A DNA stretch of 6,003 bases from the IMG/VR virus record IMGVR_UViG_2541047173_000020; one strand, given 5' to 3'. Position 1 is the stretch's first letter; the number at the start of each line of letters is the position of its first letter. A model generated the notes under the pieces. That model was not told the origin of the DNA. It searched no databases and saw nothing but the letters and a program-made list of their open reading frames with translations. Positions 1 to 6,003 of this stretch are shown one piece after another. This stretch comes from a virus (taxonomy: Duplodnaviria > Heunggongvirae > Uroviricota > Caudoviricetes). The translations under genes were made by a program, and so were the position numbers.

Positions 1-763
1 CCGATACAACACGGCGGGAAGAATCAGTAATCTGTCGAACAATATCCCGGTGCTTGTTCAGCTCCCGCAGCGCGGCGCAGACTCGCTCCCACTTCTGAAC
101 ATCACTTTTCGCCCTGCGCAGCGCCAGGTTTGCCCTGCGAAGGGACGGAAAAATCAGCTCATCTGCTTGCGTTTCGGTAAACGATGGCAACGGCTGCACA
201 ATGTCCGCCACAGTTTCTGTTTTAATTTCTTCCTGTGTTGCGGCTTCCCGGACTGGTAACGCAGCACCTGCTGGCTGAGGAAAGGCCTTACCATCACTTT
301 CCGTTACCAGCGCGGCTTTCGGCTCTGCTGGTAAATTATCGCCCGGCATGCAGTAACGAAATTTACCGTTCTGATTAACGCGTGCCAGCCGCCCCGTTGC
401 GGTTACCACCGCCAGCGTGGAAGCAACCTTGCGAGTACTGACACCGAACTTACCCGCCAGTTCCTCACACGTTTTAGCCCCATCCTGACCGATAAACTCA
501 ATCATCATGTCTGCGGTAACTTTTTGTTCGACCTCCCCGGTCAGCATATCCTGTGCTTCAGATTTTACTGGCCGCTCTTCGGTTACCCGGGATTCACCTT
601 CGCCAGCCAGAAACCAGGTGTGACCAGTTTTATCAACGACGCCATTTATTTTGAGTTCCCACAGCTCGTTGACAGCCTCTTCACGACTGATTCCAAGGCG
701 AGCTGCCACCACATGTGAAGAGGCTTTTTTCAGTGCTTTCAGTGCGTCAGATACGGTTTCCAT
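1..763 (-). CDS. Hypothetical phage protein, 5' portion only (about 254 codons; continues past the left window edge)
   Basis: Hand translation of the reverse complement from ATG (plus 761-763) is open to position 2 with no stop (METVSDALKALKKASSHVVAARLGISREEAVNELWELKINGVV...). GGAGGA lies 8 nt upstream of the ATG. Start is 23 nt downstream of the DnaC-like stop, same strand. Absent from the ORF track because no stop lies in the window. Two internal segments resemble each other (ARLGISREEAVNEL and GKFGVSTRKVASTL), suggesting tandem HTH/winged-helix-like repeats. Function not recognised. Confidence 0.65.
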   Translation of the reverse strand, partial: METVSDALKALKKASSHVVAARLGISREEAVNELWELKINGVVDKTGHTWFLAGEGESRVTEERPVKSEAQDMLTGEVEQKVTADMMIEFIGQDGAKTCEELAGKFGVSTRKVASTLAVVTATGRLARVNQNGKFRYCMPGDNLPAEPKAALVTESDGKAFPQPAGAALPVREAATQEEIKTETVADIVQPLPSFTETQADELIFPSLRRANLALRRAKSDVQKWERVCAALRELNKHRDIVRQITDSSRRVVS

Positions 764-784
764 TAAAATTTCCTCCGGACAAAA

Positions 785-1531
785 TTACTTCACAACCCTC
801 ATATTGCTGACATTTGGACGCCAGCTATCCCAGTTAAACGTCACCCATCGACCACCGTTCATGGTCATGCGGTCCATAATCCTCTCACCAAGAAGTGTAC
901 TCATTGCGGCATGATTCAGGTTTGTTAACATCCCGACACTGCACAGTGATGCTGTCCGGCGATCAATTATCTGGTGTAATACCACCTGCTCGTTTTTCGT
1001 CTCCCGCTGAACGCCTATTTCATCCAGGACCAGCAAATCAACACTGCAAAGCTCCTGTAAAAATTTTTCCCCGGATTTGCCGTTGTCGTAGCTGTCATGC
1101 AACACGCTCATGACATCAGACACGGTGACGATAATCACGCTGCGCCCCTTCGCCATCAGCCGGTTACCCATCGCCGCTGCAAGGTGATTTTTCCCGGTGC
1201 CGGTTTTACCGCTGAACACAAAATTCGTGCACCCGGTCATCAGTTCGTCAGCTATGGATTTGGCCTGGCTCAGCGCGTATTTTTGCCCGTCGTTCTGCAC
1301 CTGATAATTCGCAAACGAGCATTTGCTGTGCAGAGGCTGGATGCCCGAACGATTCAGGATTTTTTCCACCCGCAACTGGTGATTCTGGCGGTTAATCTCC
1401 TCGCTGCGTTTTCGTCCTTCAGCAAGTTGCCATTCCCGCCACTCCTCCACCGTCCGGTACGGTGGAACCGACGCCTGTGGTGCAAGTCTGCGAATACGTT
1501 CAAGAACCCCGGCTGCCGCAATGTTTTTCAT
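785..1531 (-). CDS. DnaC-like replicative helicase loader (AAA+ ATPase, DnaC/IstB family), phage replication protein P analog
   Basis: 248-aa ORF with P-loop SGKTGTGKNHLAAA and Walker B LLVLDEIG; close resemblance to E. coli DnaC throughout as recalled from memory (NRSGI..., ...LTNLN...LGERIMDRM). ATG at 1529-1531 lies 6 nt after the stop of the upstream replication gene (1538-1540), indicating translational coupling. Confidence 0.9.
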   Translation of the reverse strand: MKNIAAAGVLERIRRLAPQASVPPYRTVEEWREWQLAEGRKRSEEINRQNHQLRVEKILNRSGIQPLHSKCSFANYQVQNDGQKYALSQAKSIADELMTGCTNFVFSGKTGTGKNHLAAAMGNRLMAKGRSVIIVTVSDVMSVLHDSYDNGKSGEKFLQELCSVDLLVLDEIGVQRETKNEQVVLHQIIDRRTASLCSVGMLTNLNHAAMSTLLGERIMDRMTMNGGRWVTFNWDSWRPNVSNMRVVK

Positions 1532-1537
1532 GCCACA

Positions 1538-2629
1538 TCACCCCCTGAATCCCGGCGGAATTTCGGTATCCGGTTCAGAAATATGATTCACACAACGCTG
1601 GTTGTTCGTGCCGCTTACCGGGAGCAACCAGGGGTTTTCAAAATTCCGGTCCGGCCCAAAAAACGTCGTCGCTCGCTGAACAAATTCCGTTCCCGCTTTC
1701 CCGGTCGCCGCCAGGTATCTCGCGTAACGCCTCACACCATCCAGCATGGTCTCTGGTGGCACCCCCTCGCGCAATCTGGCCTTCCAGGCACTGAAAGCGG
1801 ATTTCTTCGGGTTTGCCCCAGCACGCAACGGGTATTCCCGCCAGACCTGTTCGAACACATCCGGATAATCCACTCGTCCCACAGACTGCCCGGTGCTTTC
1901 CGGGACTACCCGATCGGCTTCCCGCTGAATGGCGGAATCGGCTTCAGGCTGCTGCAGTTGGTGTGATTGCTCCGACCCTGCGGTCATCACCTGCTGCACA
2001 GCGCCCGAATCGGCTTCCGGTGTCGTGCCTGCTGGCTGACCAGGATTGACGGTCTGAACATCCCCTGCCTGGTTCGTGGTGTTTTTTTTGCCATGAACCA
2101 TAGTGTTTTTGTCCTGTTCCTGTTCTTTCTCCTGCTCCTGTTCCTGTTCTTGGCTTCGAAGCCCCTTAAAAGCCCCTTCGAAGCCCCTTACCGAATTTCG
2201 GCTATTATTCCGCCTCACATCCAGATGGAAATCCGTTTTATATCTGTCGTAAAACACTGACAGAAAAGCGTTTTCAGGTAATGATGCATACTCATTCCTG
2301 ACACCTGCACAACGGTTATCGCCAGGCTTCAACGTTTCCCCAACCTGCCAGGCTGCCATTTCATGGACCCAGACCATCTCTGCATCATGGTCATAGCTAC
2401 AAAAACCAGCTTCAACAGCCCTTTTAAGCCCCTTTGAAGCCCCTTCCAGACCAAGCCCGGTTTCATGAGCAAGGTATAAAACTGGCAGGTAATACAAACC
2501 CAGCATATTTGCGTGAGGGGATGTCATCAGGTAAAAAGCAACAACTTGCGCTTCTGCACCCGCCTTTCTAAGTTCTCTCCCCGTTTCTCCCAGCCAGAAT
2601 CGCGGAGAAACTTTTGCGTAATCACGCAT
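1538..2629 (-). CDS. Phage replication initiation protein (lambda O analog), 363 aa from the internal ATG; start uncertain (alternative ATG at 2740 gives 400 aa)
   Basis: Long ORF immediately upstream of and coupled to the DnaC-like gene, the standard lambdoid initiator plus helicase-loader pair. ATG at 2627-2629 (MRDYAKVSPRFW...) has GAGGT 5 nt upstream; the track start at 2740 (MSLIKAF...) has no recognisable SD. Contains an acidic (QE)n linker and two clusters of AAGCCCCTT repeats. Family assigned from gene context, not from a recognised signature. Confidence 0.75.
   Translation of the reverse strand: MRDYAKVSPRFWLGETGRELRKAGAEAQVVAFYLMTSPHANMLGLYYLPVLYLAHETGLGLEGASKGLKRAVEAGFCSYDHDAEMVWVHEMAAWQVGETLKPGDNRCAGVRNEYASLPENAFLSVFYDRYKTDFHLDVRRNNSRNSVRGFEGAFKGLRSQEQEQEQEKEQEQDKNTMVHGKKNTTNQAGDVQTVNPGQPAGTTPEADSGAVQQVMTAGSEQSHQLQQPEADSAIQREADRVVPESTGQSVGRVDYPDVFEQVWREYPLRAGANPKKSAFSAWKARLREGVPPETMLDGVRRYARYLAATGKAGTEFVQRATTFFGPDRNFENPWLLPVSGTNNQRCVNHISEPDTEIPPGFRG
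2112..2150. repeat. Imperfect tandem hexamer repeat (TCCTGT-like, about 6-7 copies) inside the replication gene
   Basis: Plus strand tcctgt tcctgt tctttc tcctgc tcctgt tcctgt tcttg; on the coding (minus) strand this encodes QEQEQEQEKEQEQDK. Confidence 0.9.
2159..2189. repeat. Iteron-like direct repeats, cluster A: 3 copies of AAGCCCCTT at 11-bp period
   Basis: AAGCCCCTT at 2159-2167, 2170-2178 and 2181-2189, seen directly in the sequence. Confidence 0.85.
2417..2458. repeat. Iteron-like direct repeats, cluster B: 3-4 copies of AGCCC(C)TT at 10-11-bp period, same orientation as cluster A
   Basis: agccctttt (2417-2425), aagcccctttg (2426-2436), aagccccttcc (2437-2447), plus a partial aagccc at 2453-2458. 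Lies about 258 bp from cluster A with a moderately AT-rich segment between. Confidence 0.8.
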
Positions 2630-2846
2630 GGCTACCTCATCTGGTGCCGAACCTTCCTCCGGATATAATCTGTGGTTCCCAATCGACAGAACCAGAGGAG
2701 GTTCGACATGTATTTTTTGAAAAGCCTTTATCAGGCTCATGTATTAAATGTTGCAGCAACAAACCGCTGGTGTAACAGCCCCGAAATGCTCCCGGATTAC
2801 AGAGCCTGGCTGCGCGCCGAAACATACCTTCGTCTCGACATATTGA

Positions 2847-3356
2847 TTAGCGAACTTCAAAAAGAGACTGCATCCATTCATAACCTTCAGGGTATCGACG
2901 CTGTTCGCATTCTGGTATCGCGCCATAGTGCTCTCTCAATAATTGAAGTGCGTCATCTCTCTTTTTCTGAACTGATTTTCTTGCTTCAACCAGCTCTGGA
3001 ATCAGCGAATATCCCGCCGGAAGTGATCCAATACCCACCTCATGTTGACGAGCAGTTACAAGATGTGCCATACAACCAGCGTGCTGGATTGACTCCCTGC
3101 TCAGAGGCTGAATGGGATCACTCTCTGCTGAAGAAATACCAAGATTTGTATAATCCTCAATAAGCCCGGCACACGCTTCTGCATCAGCCAGCTTTATTCT
3201 GGTTTCCTTGCGCTGTTCTCTGGCTGACAAACGCCAGAGCAGCGCATTAGCTTTATGTATCAACCACTCTGCCAGCTCCACATCAGATAAACCGCCACGC
3301 CAGATGTGCGGACTGTTTTCGTAAACGCTCAGTGTCAATTTTTTGTCATTACTCAT
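2847..3356 (-). CDS. Hypothetical protein, 169 aa, function unknown (extra gene between the CII-like gene and the replication initiator)
   Basis: ATG at 3354-3356 (MSNDKKLTLSVYENSPHIW...) lies 13 nt after the ydaT-like stop (3370-3372), same strand, so likely co-transcribed; the track ORF (2847..3407, 186 aa) begins further upstream inside ydaT. By hand count, first-codon-position G is about 34% here against about 26% for the overlapping plus-strand ORF, favouring this strand. SD is weak. No family recognised. Confidence 0.6.
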   Translation of the reverse strand: MSNDKKLTLSVYENSPHIWRGGLSDVELAEWLIHKANALLWRLSAREQRKETRIKLADAEACAGLIEDYTNLGISSAESDPIQPLSRESIQHAGCMAHLVTARQHEVGIGSLPAGYSLIPELVEARKSVQKKRDDALQLLREHYGAIPECEQRRYPEGYEWMQSLFEVR

Positions 3357-3369
3357 ATTTATTACCCAA

Positions 3370-3795
3370 TTAATGCACAGCCAGAGTGTTTCCTGCCGGG
3401 CCACCACGATTCATCTGATCGAACAGAACGATCGCTGATGCAACGAAATCATCAATATCTTTCACCAGCCGTTCCTTCGTCTCTACCAACTCCCGAAAAT
3501 AAGCGGAACTGTGGCTGCGCATTCGGGCCACCAGCGGAGGCGGCATCGCTTTTTCGATCGCTGGTAACAACGCCTGAATTTTTTTAACCGCATCAGGAGT
3601 GTCTTTCTCCACCCAGCGGAAAATTTTCTGAGTATTGCGAGCCATGGCTTCCGGATGGCTGTCGTCATACAGTTCCGGGAACGTCATTCCCAGCTCGAAA
3701 TACGCTTTGGTAATTTTCGCAGCCGGTACTTTTTCGCCGTCCGGATGCGCCCAGACATTCATCGCCATGCGGATGTGTTCATGCTTGATTTTCAT
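3370..3795 (-). CDS. ydaT: YdaT-like protein (proposed CII functional analog of Rac/CP-933P-type prophages), 141 aa
   Basis: Start MKIKHEHI... matches my recollection of the YdaT family N-terminus; sits directly downstream of the Cro-like gene with an ATGA start/stop overlap (ATG 3793-3795, TGA 3792-3794). GGAG lies 7 nt upstream. Family call is from memory, not a search. Confidence 0.75.
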   Translation of the reverse strand: MKIKHEHIRMAMNVWAHPDGEKVPAAKITKAYFELGMTFPELYDDSHPEAMARNTQKIFRWVEKDTPDAVKKIQALLPAIEKAMPPPLVARMRSHSSAYFRELVETKERLVKDIDDFVASAIVLFDQMNRGGPAGNTLAVH

Positions 3796-4094
3796 GAATC
3801 AACTCCATCAGATAAGCATGCACTACAATCACCTTCAGCATGAACTACATGTGTTTGCCCCAAACGAATGCCGCTCGCATACTCAGGCCAAATAAGCTCC
3901 CAATCATGGGGTCGTAGCTCCGCCCTACTTACTTGGCCTTCCGTCGCAGATTCGATCATAAGGGCGCGGGTTGGAGATATAGCTGTTCGTCCAGACGCCA
4001 TTTGCGATAAGTAAGATGGCGATACACCAAGTCTGGCCGCGAATTTCTTAGCATCACCAACCCTTAATGATTTAATAAACTCTTTTAATGTCAT
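3792..4094 (-). CDS. ydaS: Cro-like HTH regulator (YdaS family), 100 aa
   Basis: N-terminal HTH-like segment AKKFAARLGVSPSYLSQMASGRTAIS; GAGGAAGG SD directly upstream of the ATG (4092-4094); first gene of the minus-strand operon, divergent from the repressor-like gene, which is the classic cro position. Confidence 0.85.
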   Translation of the reverse strand: MTLKEFIKSLRVGDAKKFAARLGVSPSYLSQMASGRTAISPTRALMIESATEGQVSRAELRPHDWELIWPEYASGIRLGQTHVVHAEGDCSACLSDGVDS

Positions 4095-4122
4095 ACCTTC
4101 CTCGGTTTAGTGTTTTTTTGCG

Positions 4123-4152
4123 AGTTTAGTGTTTAATAAACCATTAAGTCAA
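4123..4152 (-). promoter_or_regulatory. Putative pR-like promoter for the ydaS operon (TTGACT, 18-nt spacer, TAAACT) overlapping operator motifs
   Basis: On the minus strand the -35 TTGACT is plus 4147-4152 and the -10 TAAACT is plus 4123-4128. The perfect palindrome GTTTA-A-TAAAC (4131-4141) lies in the spacer. TTTAGTG motifs occur at 4106-4112 and 4125-4131. Inferred from consensus only. Confidence 0.4.
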
Positions 4153-4156
4153 GTAT

Positions 4157-4185
4157 TTGCTTGTTTAGTGATTACTAAAGATAAT
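4157..4185 (+). promoter_or_regulatory. Putative pRM-like promoter for paaR2 (TTGCTT, 17-nt spacer, GATAAT), predicted to give a leaderless or near-leaderless mRNA
   Basis: -35 TTGCTT at 4157-4162 and -10 GATAAT at 4180-4185; the ATG of the regulator is at 4192 with no SD upstream. The spacer contains the inverted repeat TTTAGT-gatt-ACTAAA (4164-4179). Confidence 0.45.
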
Positions 4186-4191
4186 TACCAC

Positions 4192-4563
4192 ATGCAAAAA
4201 AAAGAAATTCGCCGTTTACGTCTCAAGGAGTGGTTTAAAGATAAAACTCTGCCACCCAAAGAGAAGAGCTACCTATCTCAACTAATGAGTGGGAGAGCCT
4301 CGTTTGGAGAAAAGGCTGCCAGAAGAATAGAGCAAACATACGGGATGCCGGAAGGGTATCTGGATGCGGAATACGCAGAACAACCGGGGGGTTCTCCACC
4401 ACATGCAGGGTTAACGTCTAATCAACTGGAATTATTGCAGATTTTTTCAGCCTTCCCTGAGGATGAGCAACGCCAGATAATCAGCGAGTTAAAGCAGAAA
4501 AAAGAATCAATGGAAGATCTCATAGCGAGATGGATTGCGGCGCAAAAATGCCGCCGCGCCTGA
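4192..4563 (+). CDS. paaR2: CI-type HTH transcriptional regulator, PaaR2-like (first gene of the three-component TA operon; putative prophage repressor analog), 123 aa
   Basis: MQKKEIRRLRLKEWFKDKTLPPKEKSYLSQLMSGRASFGEKAARRIEQTYGMPEGYLD resembles a phage CI-repressor-type HTH domain with no S24 peptidase domain. Divergent from the cro-like gene and followed by antitoxin and ParE toxin genes. The track start at 4129 is a GTG inside the operator region and is judged unlikely. Confidence 0.8.
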   Translation: MQKKEIRRLRLKEWFKDKTLPPKEKSYLSQLMSGRASFGEKAARRIEQTYGMPEGYLDAEYAEQPGGSPPHAGLTSNQLELLQIFSAFPEDEQRQIISELKQKKESMEDLIARWIAAQKCRRA

Positions 4564-4583
4564 GTTATAAAACCGGAGGAAAC

Positions 4584-4775
4584 ATGAATAGAGCCCTTTC
4601 ACCAATGGTTTCTGAATTTGAAACCATTGAACAAGAAAACAGTTACAACGAATGGCTGCGTGCGAAAGTAGCAACGAGCCTTGCAGATCCGCGCCCAGCA
4701 ATTCCCCATGACGAAGTTGAGCGCAGAATGGCAGAACGCTTTGCTAAGATGCGCAAGGAACGGAGCAAGCAGTAA
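4584..4775 (+). CDS. paaA2: Antitoxin of a ParE-family toxin, PaaA2-like, 63 aa
   Basis: GGAGGA SD at 4575-4580, ATG at 4584; 63-aa charged product (MNRALSPMVSEFETIEQENSYNEWLRAKV...) directly upstream of and almost abutting the ParE-like gene (stop TAA 4773-4775, next ATG 4777). Size and gene order match the PaaA2 antitoxin as I recall it. Confidence 0.85.
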   Translation: MNRALSPMVSEFETIEQENSYNEWLRAKVATSLADPRPAIPHDEVERRMAERFAKMRKERSKQ

Positions 4776-4776
4776 A

Positions 4777-5055
4777 ATGTTACCCGTGTTATGGCTTGAA
4801 AGCGCAGATACCGACCTAGATGATATAACTAGTTATATTGCTCGTTTCGACATAGATGCGGCTGAACGCTTATGGCAGCGATTAAGGGGTTGTGTGCTGC
4901 CGTTATCCGAACATCCGTATTTATACCCACCAAGCGACAGAGTACCTGGCTTGCGTGAGATTGTAGCCCACCCTAACTATATAATTCTATACCGCGTAAC
5001 AACATCAAGCGTTGAAGTAGTAAACGTGATCCACGCAAGACGCCAGTTTCCCTAA
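4777..5055 (+). CDS. parE2: ParE/RelE-superfamily toxin, ParE2-like, 92 aa
   Basis: Product MLPVLWLESADTDLDDITSYIARF...REIVAHPNYIILYRVTTSSVEVVNVIHARRQFP has the size and layout of ParE toxins; starts 1 nt after the antitoxin stop. Confidence 0.85.
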   Translation: MLPVLWLESADTDLDDITSYIARFDIDAAERLWQRLRGCVLPLSEHPYLYPPSDRVPGLREIVAHPNYIILYRVTTSSVEVVNVIHARRQFP

Positions 5056-5073
5056 CTTTCACTACCAATAGAA

Positions 5074-5120
5074 ACATAACAACCGCAACGACTTTATCAA
5101 AAGCGTTGTGTTTGTTATGT
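5074..5120 (+). terminator. Imperfect hairpin downstream of parE2, possible terminator (tIMM analog) or protein-binding inverted repeat
   Basis: Arms 5074-5090 (acataacaaccgcaacg) and 5104-5120 (cgttgtgtttgttatgt) pair at 15 of 17 positions around a 13-nt loop; a T-rich run (tttagttttt, 5128-5137) follows about 8 nt later. The stem is AT-rich and not a textbook intrinsic terminator. Confidence 0.3.
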
Positions 5121-5139
5121 CCCGCGGTTTAGTTTTTAC

Positions 5140-5167
5140 TTGACTTAAGTTTAATGTTTATTAAACT
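5140..5167 (+). promoter_or_regulatory. Putative pL-like promoter (TTGACT, 16-nt spacer, TAAACT) with operator palindrome; an inverted copy of the pR block
   Basis: -35 TTGACT at 5140-5145 and -10 TAAACT at 5162-5167; palindrome GTTTA-T-TAAAC at 5156-5166. The reverse complement of 5135-5166 closely matches 4125-4153 (shared ...GTTTAATAAAC..ATTAA..TTAAGTCAAGTA). Confidence 0.4.
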
Positions 5168-5485
5168 AAAAATACCAACCCACCCCGCCCCACAGAACGC
5201 AGGGAAATACTTCGAGTTACCAAGCAGTGGTCAGGGGGTAAGTAGCCAGCCCGAGGCGTATGAACATGACGGCAGGGTTCAACTTTAATAACTATGCAGC
5301 AGTTTTTTGTTCCGCTACCCCGGCGTTAAGGGGAAACAGAGGGTTTCTCAGTGGGCGAAGTCAAACATCAGAATGGAAGGCATCCCGGGATCGGCAAAGA
5401 AGCAGCAATGGCGCTTTATATTGACATCAGCGCCATTGCAGGACAGGTAAGAGTTATCAGAGCGGTAACTAAGCGGTATGCGCCT

Positions 5486-5686
5486 TTACTTCAGAAAGTC
5501 TCTGGTGAGTGCACCGAAGATATTGTCAACGATTTCGTCATCGAACTGCGAGGACTCATCTTCAGTTACAAGGTGACCACAATTTTTGCAGATGGCTCCC
5601 GCGAAACTGTCAGAGCCCTGCGGCTTAAAGGATGTGTCAAAGACTTCGCCACCACATTCTGGGCAAGAAAACTTGATTGTATTCAT
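5486..5686 (-). CDS. Small zinc-ribbon protein, 66 aa from the ATG (two CxxCG knuckles: CPECGG and CKNCGH), function unknown
   Basis: ATG at 5684-5686 with GAGAGGAAA SD about 7 nt upstream; the track start at 5692 is a TTG. Cysteine pairs are spaced in a classic zinc-ribbon pattern and the C-terminus is acidic. An overlapping plus-strand ORF (5351/5408..5707) exists, so strand assignment is uncertain; second-codon-position composition (hand count A 22, T 18, C 14, G 12 of 66) mildly favours this strand. Confidence 0.5.
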   Translation of the reverse strand: MNTIKFSCPECGGEVFDTSFKPQGSDSFAGAICKNCGHLVTEDESSQFDDEIVDNIFGALTRDFLK

Positions 5687-5779
5687 AACCAATTTCCTCT
5701 CGAGTAACAGACCCCTCAGAGGATACCACCTCGCCTGACGTGGTTAAAAAGCAGGCAACGCTAACCACAAGGAGCCGAC

Positions 5780-5998
5780 ATGCAGAAACGAGACCCCGTC
5801 ATCATCGCGCCAGACTATACCGATGATGAACTTTATGAGTGGATGCACCAGAAAATTAAGGCGGTGCAGGACCTGAAATGGGCCAATGAAGCCAGGGCTA
5901 AGCAGGCTGAAAATCTGTCCGCTCTGGAGCAGGATATCACCAATCTGGAAAAAGCAGCGGCATTAAGCATTGCCAGAATGATTACATACCCACGTTAA
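5780..5998 (+). CDS. Hypothetical small phage protein, 72 aa (early-left operon candidate)
   Basis: AAGGAG SD at 5770-5775, 4 nt before the ATG at 5780; complete ORF with TAA at 5996-5998. Product MQKRDPVIIAPDYTDDELYEWMHQKIKAVQDLKWANEARAKQAENLSALEQDI... is predicted helical or coiled-coil-like. No family recognised. Confidence 0.7.
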   Translation: MQKRDPVIIAPDYTDDELYEWMHQKIKAVQDLKWANEARAKQAENLSALEQDITNLEKAAALSIARMITYPR

Positions 5999-6003
5999 TA
6001 GCT

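Follow-up and report, generated by a model that had tools for sequence, protein, structure and literature searches.

The paaR2-paaA2-parE2 operon in the probable immunity region of a lambda-like Escherichia coli prophage

The original account of paaR2-paaA2-parE2 treats it as a three-part toxin-antitoxin operon (Hallez et al. 2010, cited in PMC9986795 and PMC8630535). In prophage CP-933P, 5' RACE, N-terminal sequencing and mass spectrometry showed that the paaR2 transcript is leaderless, its 5' end falling at the paaR2 ATG (Jurenas et al. 2021, PMC8630535). In the same study, EMSA and DNase I footprinting revealed that PaaR2 and YdaS bind the 97-bp intergenic region, with about 78 bp and 65 bp protected, respectively. 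Using gfp fusions, each of the two proteins was found to repress both PR and PRM up to 45-fold, while PaaR2 at low level stimulated PRM. Next to the operon lies a PL analogue with OL1-3, which PaaR2 and YdaS repressed about 100-fold, and a PRE-type promoter was activated by YdaT. The locus was bistable. In a plasmid reporter most cells were ydaST-on. Both switch states included transcription of the toxin-antitoxin genes, and neither activated the toxin. The region stabilised a mini-F plasmid as well as ccdAB did, with post-segregational killing. PaaA2, which has no DNA-binding domain, was unstable and degraded by ClpAP and ClpXP, and ParE2 caused an SOS response on overexpression and colocalised with the nucleoid. 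The authors reported no sequence similarity between PaaR2 and CI. They proposed PaaR2, YdaS and YdaT as the counterparts of CI, Cro and CII, and the toxin-antitoxin pair as an addiction module limiting rearrangement of the immunity region (PMC8630535). YdaT was subsequently described as a POU-type tetramer without the CII fold (Prolic-Kalinsek et al. 2023, PMC9986795). Paralogues of the paaR1-paaA1-parE1 type, in CP-933M and other E. coli prophages, have the same type of gene order.

The window analysed here is a stretch of 6,003 nucleotides from a tailed-phage record (IMGVR_UViG_2541047173_000020). Positions 4192-5055 are filled exactly by three co-oriented plus-strand ORFs. The first, paaR2 (4192-4563), runs from ATG 4192 to TGA 4563 and encodes a CI-analogue repressor of 123 aa. 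The second, paaA2 (4584-4775), encodes an antitoxin of 63 aa from ATG 4584 to TAA 4775 and is preceded by GGAGGA at 4574-4579, as read directly from the sequence. The third, parE2 (4777-5055), encodes a ParE/RelE-family toxin of 92 aa from ATG 4777 to TAA 5055, its ATG lying 1 nt past the paaA2 stop codon (4773-4775). The original prediction had placed a PaaR2-PaaA2-ParE2-like module here and had proposed a protein search as a check. In that search PaaA2 matched Pfam PF21217 (1e-19, 70.7 bits against a cut-off of 27) and PDB entries 3zbe/5cw7 (5.5e-37). ParE2 matched Pfam ParE_toxin PF05016 over all of its profile positions (1-89 of 89; 1.9e-16, 60.9 bits against a cut-off of 23) and PDB 5cw7_B over residues 1-92 (7e-60). 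No Pfam match was found for PaaR2, but its residues 1-66 are identical to PDB 7nkv/8c3k, an entry titled 'Phage repressor protein CI', and it also matches 8c3l as well as S24-type repressors. PaaR2 consists of an HTH domain at the N-terminus and a short, helical domain at the C-terminus, and it lacks an S24 peptidase domain.

A base-by-base comparison of 3801-5200 with E. coli O157:H7 strain TR01 gave 100% nucleotide identity, and the PaaR2, PaaA2, ParE2 and YdaS proteins are identical to the TR01 copies. In a megablast search with 3700-5400, 592 of 5,426 complete E. coli genomes matched at a coverage of at least 80%, O157:H7 strains being the best (99.8%). The predicted module was thus confirmed to the base, and its products are PaaR2, PaaA2 and ParE2 themselves, beyond being merely '-like'. 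Chance ORFs, or proteins that only resemble PaaR2, were ruled out by the identity to solved proteins. Positions 4192-5055 are therefore the paaR2-paaA2-parE2 operon already characterised in a lambda-like prophage of E. coli. The functional statements made below for the window are carried over from identical sequences, none of them coming from the window's own strain. RefSeq labels PaaR2 a 'hypothetical protein' and Pfam still calls YdaS and YdaT 'toxins', and both annotations call for correction.

The small antitoxin and toxin genes are adjacent, co-oriented and translationally coupled, as in type II toxin-antitoxin systems. However, a canonical type II antitoxin has a DNA-binding domain and autoregulates its operon, whereas PaaA2 matches only the 33-position PaaA2 profile. 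Regulation by the separate PaaR2 makes the operon the known non-canonical three-gene form. From the identical proteins, whose complex is solved (5cw7), ParE2 would be expected to arrest growth and PaaA2 to neutralise it by direct protein binding.

An OR-type operator/promoter block of 97 bp (4095-4191) precedes paaR2, as found by a promoter scan together with repeats and a palindrome at 4163-4180. This gap holds back-to-back promoters and three or four operator repeats. PR lies on the minus strand (TTGACT 4152-4147, an 18-nt spacer and TAAACT 4128-4123; promoter scan). PRM was read by eye on the plus strand (TTGCTT 4157-4162, a 17-nt spacer and GATAAT 4180-4185); it is weak, and its -10 hexamer ends six bases before the paaR2 ATG, which is also the predicted transcription start. 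This position agrees with the leaderless start mapped by 5' RACE (PMC8630535).

On the far side of the operon, a plus-strand OL-type operator block with a PL analogue (5127-5171) was identified by the promoter scan and by operator copies at 5127 and 5149. PL (TTGACT 5140-5145, a 16-nt spacer and TAAACT 5162-5167) is directed away from the operon and has the same hexamers as PR in the opposite orientation; 12 nt of its -35 region perfectly invert the PR stretch 4144-4155 (inverted repeat I4). A 14-nt GTTTAGT-based repeat has five copies within 4060-5200, found only at 4105, 4124, 4163, 5127 and 5149. GTTTAGTR occurs 3 times in the window against 0.2 expected. The window has 15 one-mismatch GTTTAGT sites, 12 of them in 4105-4180 and 5127-5171, the two intervals to which the repeats are confined. 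Both operator blocks are real and beyond chance, as had been claimed for 4100-4190 and 5125-5170. Binding by PaaR2 and repression of the early promoters have been shown for DNA and protein identical to those of the window (PMC8630535), and the same would be expected here. The original prediction had suggested that the regulator might double as the prophage repressor, which is borne out by the published intergenic binding and the repression of PR and PL. Base composition has a mild AT-rich dip at the operator blocks and gave no clear foreign-island signal for the toxin-antitoxin pair.

Between parE2 and the OL-type block lies a plus-strand hairpin (5074-5120) of about 20 pairs, found by folding and as inverted repeat I3. 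The folded stretch around it, 5050-5135, reached -24 kcal/mol (z = -4.4). The hairpin was not called by the terminator scan, because its T-run begins 7 nt past the stem, and the sites that were called were at chance level; it lacks a canonical U-tract. It occupies the same position as lambda tIMM and may be the operon terminator or an RNA end-stabiliser. In phage Evi, the hairpin has two unpaired changes at the stem base. When the full 6,003 nucleotides were compared with Rfam (E <= 1), the single match was a spurious miRNA on this hairpin, at 23 bits where the gathering score is 88, and the window contains no known RNA family. A nut/put-like structured element was considered for the PL leader (5174-5345) and was dropped after the fold was no more stable than shuffles (z = +0.5).

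To the left of the 97-bp block, ydaS and ydaT diverge from the operon on the minus strand. YdaS, the Cro analogue of 100 aa (3792-4094), matches Pfam YdaS PF15943 (3.3e-12) and HTH_3 (6e-7). YdaT, the CII analogue of 141 aa (3370-3795), matches Pfam YdaT_toxin PF06254 (1.2e-9) and PDB 8bt1/3c4r (about 1e-83). The YdaT operator OM, TTGATTTTCATGAATCAA, is located at the ydaS/ydaT junction in the PRE region (3785-3802) and is a mismatch-free copy of the published TTGATTN6AATCAA site (PMC9986795). YdaT differs from the O157 copy at 19 residues, all within residues 51-140, because the mosaic crossover falls there. Farther left are a 400-aa ORF without assignment, a gene for a DnaC/IstB-type ATPase and a DUF1627 gene. 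Together with ydaS and ydaT, these genes are a lambdoid early-right arm.

The lambda immunity region, PL/OL-rexB-rexA-cI-PRM/OR/PR-cro-cII, has its functional parts in the same order and orientation as the window. As in lambdoid immunity regions, divergent repressor and cro-type genes surround a short operator-bearing gap, and a second operator set is located at an outward PL on the far side of the repressor operon. The two systems also share a leaderless repressor mRNA, divergent promoters with common operators, passenger genes, partners of Cro and CII type, and bistability. A lambda-like gene order had been predicted from the sequence, with a divergent cro-like gene after the second promoter block. 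The layout proved real, but the cro-like gene, ydaS, diverges from the first block, and the predicted wording is right only in lambda map order. Several differences from lambda were also found. PaaR2 has no detected similarity to CI and no S24 domain. The operators here are four 18-bp inverted repeats with the half-site consensus GTTTAGTAA, whereas lambda has three palindromes. Moreover, the cargo is a ParE-type toxin-antitoxin pair that is unrelated to RexA/RexB: the only Pfam matches of the two downstream products were PaaA2 and ParE_toxin, and PADLOC gave none. The resemblance to RexA/RexB is therefore positional only. That paaA2-parE2 take the place of rexA-rexB, as the original prediction held, is stated in PMC9986795. 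The original prediction had regarded the module as a known family with an interesting placement; the family is indeed known, but the placement had already been published.

The best explanation, to which we assign a probability of about 93%, is that this part of the window is the immunity region of a lambdoid E. coli prophage of the CP-933P/Sp12 type, with PaaR2 as its repressor of CI type and the toxin-antitoxin genes as passengers. The paaR2 mRNA would start at its own ATG and be driven by the weak PRM. PaaR2 would occupy the GTTTAGT-type operators both in the 97-bp block common to the divergent PR and in the second block downstream of the operon. The bound repressor would shut PR, which serves ydaS, ydaT and the replication genes, as well as the outward PL towards ydfC/dicB, while a low level of PaaR2 would stimulate PRM. 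YdaS would compete for the PaaR2 sites, producing a bistable switch with two heritable states, and YdaT bound at 3785-3802 would activate a PRE-type promoter from which transcription also enters the operon. The genes paaA2 and parE2 would travel as passengers on the repressor transcript in the stead of rexA-rexB, and the hairpin would probably end or stabilise this transcript. ClpAP and ClpXP would degrade the unstable PaaA2, whose direct binding would otherwise neutralise ParE2. Loss of the cassette would free ParE2 and kill or arrest the cell, so that the cassette would be addictive. A toxin-based addiction or abortive-infection function was part of the original prediction; of the two, it is addiction, as post-segregational killing, that has been demonstrated (PMC8630535). 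Co-transcription of the pair with the repressor from the maintenance promoter had likewise been foreseen and is published (PMC8630535), although PRM is not the sole route, the YdaT-activated PRE being another. Since paaA2 and parE2 have transcripts in either state of the switch, co-transcription from PRM accounts for only part of their expression.

The operon, its regulation and its rexAB-like placement are thus already known and in print, and the present analysis carries little weight as a discovery, since module, regulation and placement have all been published. The outcome nevertheless validates the first-stage reading of the sequence. What is added here is modest and incremental: PaaR2 has an N-domain homologous to that of S24 repressors, the cargo slot behind such repressors varies, the window is mosaic, and an isolated phage carries the cassette.

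A search with PaaR2 found 156 relatives, which included two groups. Members of the first are about 123 aa long and 45-54% identical over the full length, and come from Photorhabdus, Xenorhabdus, Providencia, Serratia, Salmonella and others. Members of the second are about 212 aa long, carry Peptidase_S24 (PF00717) and have only the N-terminal domain in common with PaaR2. PaaR2 is 80% identical over residues 7-65 to one of these S24-family proteins (P0068, 211 aa, with PF00717), and the search listed up to 83% identity to S24-type repressors over a shorter aligned stretch. An alignment of the relatives (A2) has 22 invariant columns between residues 7 and 58, and in it PaaR2 ends where the S24 domain of the relatives starts. 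PaaR2 thus shares the N-terminal HTH of S24 repressors, whereas a C-terminal Peptidase_S24 domain is absent from its 123 aa. S24-peptidase repressors of the CI/LexA type are found in prophages of Serratia, Yersinia, Erwinia and Proteus: their N-terminal DNA-binding domain is like that of PaaR2, but they carry the autocleavage domain PF00717 where PaaR2 has a helical tail of about 45 aa. At one Serratia locus (L008) the PRM/operator stretch is nearly identical to that of the window and the YdaS-like neighbour is the same. Judged by sequence, PaaR2 has a bona fide CI/LexA-family DNA-binding domain on a different tail; it would work like CI, with only its N-domain being a family member. The published statement that PaaR2 has no similarity to CI is, in the light of this homology, true of lambda CI itself. 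Because the helical tail replaces PF00717, a response of PaaR2 to RecA is not expected, and without the S24 autocleavage domain PaaR2 lacks the step by which CI repressors are classically induced in the SOS response. PaaR2 may thus be viewed as a non-cleavable relative of the inducible S24 repressors, and the slot behind it as a cargo hotspot.

The neighbourhoods of these relatives bear on what PaaR2 is for. In all ten loci with gene calls, the repressor diverges from a YdaS-like gene and adjoins CII/YdaT and replication genes, and of 75 fetched loci containing a PaaR2 relative, 64 also had a relative of YdaS by tblastn. The only gene-called loci in which PaaA2 and ParE come after the repressor are L010 and L011, both close relatives from Escherichia and comparable with the paaR1-paaA1-parE1-type paralogues. 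There, a PaaR homologue with 75% and 66% identity, respectively, is followed by PaaA2-family and ParE genes and diverges from ydaS/ydaT; these are other repressor alleles, and L011 has extra downstream DUF6694 and Zn-ribbon genes. In 63 species-representative loci with a PaaR2 N-domain repressor, tblastn detected no PaaA2/ParE2 relative within 5 kb. Behind a single Providencia repressor sequence (P0013), two different cargos were found, either a SIR2 protein (PADLOC candidate PDC-S25, 2.8e-204) or an unknown 342-aa protein. HipA_2 and DUF3037 genes, which match PDC-M66A/B, occupy the slot in two loci, and other slots contain PDC-S42, HEC-04, OLD/AriA-like ATPases, a Panacea-domain protein, DUF4411 or nucleases. 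At four loci (L004, L005, L008 and L012), GTTTAGT clusters are present in the divergent intergenic region and again just past the cargo. Thus the cargo varies within a constant 'OR - repressor - cargo - OL' layout, which supports the analogy with the rexAB slot and argues against PaaR2 being a dedicated toxin-antitoxin regulator.

It has to be considered whether the operon is instead an autonomous three-component toxin-antitoxin system that landed in a prophage, with PaaR2 as a dedicated 'split antitoxin' regulator and not an immunity repressor. Such an origin would suit the original tripartite description (Hallez et al. 2010, as cited) and the want of a DNA-binding domain in PaaA2. However, operators of the PaaR2 type are also found on PL, outside the toxin-antitoxin operon, and PaaR2 represses ydaS-ydaT. 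In addition, S24-type CI repressors have an N-domain that matches that of PaaR2 at up to 80% identity, YdaS-like neighbours were called in the ten loci, the 63 species-representative loci lack a relative of the pair, and one and the same repressor protein can stand before two different cargo genes. Published data contradict the autonomous system as well, and we consider it very improbable. With PaaR2 as the immunity repressor, the toxin-antitoxin pair is probably lineage-specific cargo in a generally variable slot, outside the switch proper.

A different question is the purpose of this cargo. The pair might chiefly be a superinfection-exclusion or abortive-infection module, functionally equivalent to RexAB. 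If an incoming phage blocked host transcription or switched on proteolysis, PaaA2 would be depleted, ParE2 set free and the infection aborted. This proposal is compatible with the regulatory picture given above, since it concerns only what the cargo does. The pair sits in the rexAB position, the repressor operon expresses it when the switch is lysogenic, and the slot of homologous repressors holds candidate defence genes, including the SIR2 protein PDC-S25, PDC-M66A/B, PDC-S42, HEC-04 and the OLD/AriA-like genes. On the other hand, PaaR2, PaaA2 and ParE2 match no PADLOC model, none of the papers in the literature collection searched reports a phage challenge of PaaA2/ParE2, and abortive infection is unmentioned in PMC8630535, where post-segregational killing was demonstrated and the toxin was activated in neither state of the switch. 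An exclusion function is therefore unlikely to be the main one. Equally tentative is a broader proposal, in which the repressor-to-OL interval would be a general exchangeable toxin/defence slot of Gamma- and Betaproteobacterial prophages, and PaaA2-ParE2 would both exclude superinfecting phages as RexAB does and protect the immunity cassette at 3800-5183.

The closest described prophage, CP-933P of strain EDL933 (Sp12 of strain Sakai, both O157:H7), has the same operators, the same PR, PRM and PL, the same YdaT operator, and the same downstream Zn-ribbon ORF and ydfC. However, its left backbone differs from that of the window, which is on a different replication backbone, and so does its YdaT; on this comparison of sequences, the window is not CP-933P itself. 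Window positions 3370-6003 are 97.6% identical to the O157 prophage, and leftwards from within ydaT the match to O157 falls to 88% or is absent. Positions 1-3800 are instead 99.3% identical to a prophage (L002) of a pig E. coli isolate. The immunity cassette of that prophage differs and consists of Cro/CI, a LexA-family protein and ydfA-ydfB-ydfC, with no toxin-antitoxin pair, and the prophage rejoins the window at 5183-5336 and 5780-6003. From these breakpoints, about 3800-5183, from ydaS through OL/PL, behaves as a classical exchangeable 'imm' cassette that encloses the toxin-antitoxin pair. None of the complete E. coli genomes in the collection covers at least 80% of the window.

Escherichia phage Evi (LR597642) has the same cassette, intact and 98.3% identical, with no difference in ParE2. 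Evi is a coliphage isolated from infant faeces (PMC10910852), and its 40-kb genome has genes for head, tail and lysis as well as Q and replication genes. Hence the switch also occurs outside cryptic prophages, and Evi offers a tractable system for the role of the toxin-antitoxin pair in a living phage. The idea that the cassette is a plasmid module was rejected, since the only match in the plasmid collection was a 1.4-Mb record that is effectively chromosomal. The mosaic structure of the window indicates that the cassette at 3800-5183 moved intact between lambdoid backbones.

The window is a mosaic, matched by different prophages along its length. Its replication arm and most of ydaT (1-3800) are 99.3% identical to a prophage of pig E. 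coli (L002), whereas the immunity cassette of that prophage differs from the one in the window. From ydaS to OL/PL, the match is instead to the type found in CP-933P, a cryptic prophage of E. coli O157:H7 (L001; 3370-6003 compared), and homology with the pig prophage picks up again at 5183. This change of closest match and the return of pig prophage homology indicate that the immunity cassette is swapped as a unit, including its toxin-antitoxin pair.

The cassette is also present in Escherichia phage Evi (LR597642.1), an isolated lambdoid coliphage of 40 kb, in which ydaS-paaR2-paaA2-parE2-OL is intact at 20001-21389 with 98.3% identity. ParE2 of Evi is identical to that of the window, and its gene carries no annotation in LR597642.1. 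Evi thus provides a viable phage for studying a switch that has until now been analysed in a cryptic prophage only.

The DNA-binding domain of PaaR2 (residues 1-60; window 4192-4370) shares up to 80% identity with that of SOS-cleavable S24 repressors. The PRM/operator stretch is nearly identical in a Serratia locus with an S24-type repressor (L008, 3920-4000), as seen in CAAGCATTTGCTTGTTTAGTGATTGCTA versus CAAGTATTTGCTTGTTTAGTGATTACTA. Inducible and non-inducible repressors may have one specificity in common. The slot between homologous repressors and their OL operators holds varied cargo in loci of PaaR2-related repressors (L004, 4445-5473; L005, 2255-3868; L027, 5540-7095; L039, 5692-7253). 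Examples include a SIR2 protein (PADLOC PDC-S25) and HipA_2 with DUF3037 (PDC-M66A/B), and two alternative cargo genes were found behind one identical Providencia repressor.

Database names for several of these proteins are misleading. YdaS and YdaT, encoded at 3370-4094, are still "toxins" in Pfam; their roles as Cro and CII analogues have been shown experimentally (PMC8630535). In the RefSeq annotation of L001, PaaR2 is a "hypothetical protein" and PaaA2 a "RelB family antitoxin".

In the replication arm, (G/A)AAGCCCCTT occurs in five copies forming two clusters (2158-2189 and 2425-2445) with 11-bp spacing inside each; six matches were observed against 0.8 expected. Both clusters fall within a 400-aa ORF that also codes for a low-complexity run, EQEQEQEKEQEQ. 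As in lambda, the repeats could represent origin iterons within an O-like gene. The interval from the replication gene to ydaT contains two long, mutually overlapping ORFs, one on each strand (2672-3163, plus; 2847-3407, minus). Neither has a Pfam match, and the plus-strand ORF is named "ECs1072 family phage-associated protein" by RefSeq in a related prophage.

The 154 nt directly 3' of the PL analogue (5183-5336) are 95% conserved in the heteroimmune prophage of pig E. coli, and their counterpart there stands before ydfA. The RNA fold of this segment is not significant (z = +0.5), and Rfam gave no match. Further downstream, a 68-aa zinc-ribbon ORF with two CxxC motifs (5486-5692, minus strand; "ECs_2282 family putative zinc-binding protein" in RefSeq) is oriented opposite to the transcription predicted to start at the PL analogue, so that it would be antisense to that RNA. 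It occupies the position of ydfA-ydfB in related prophages.
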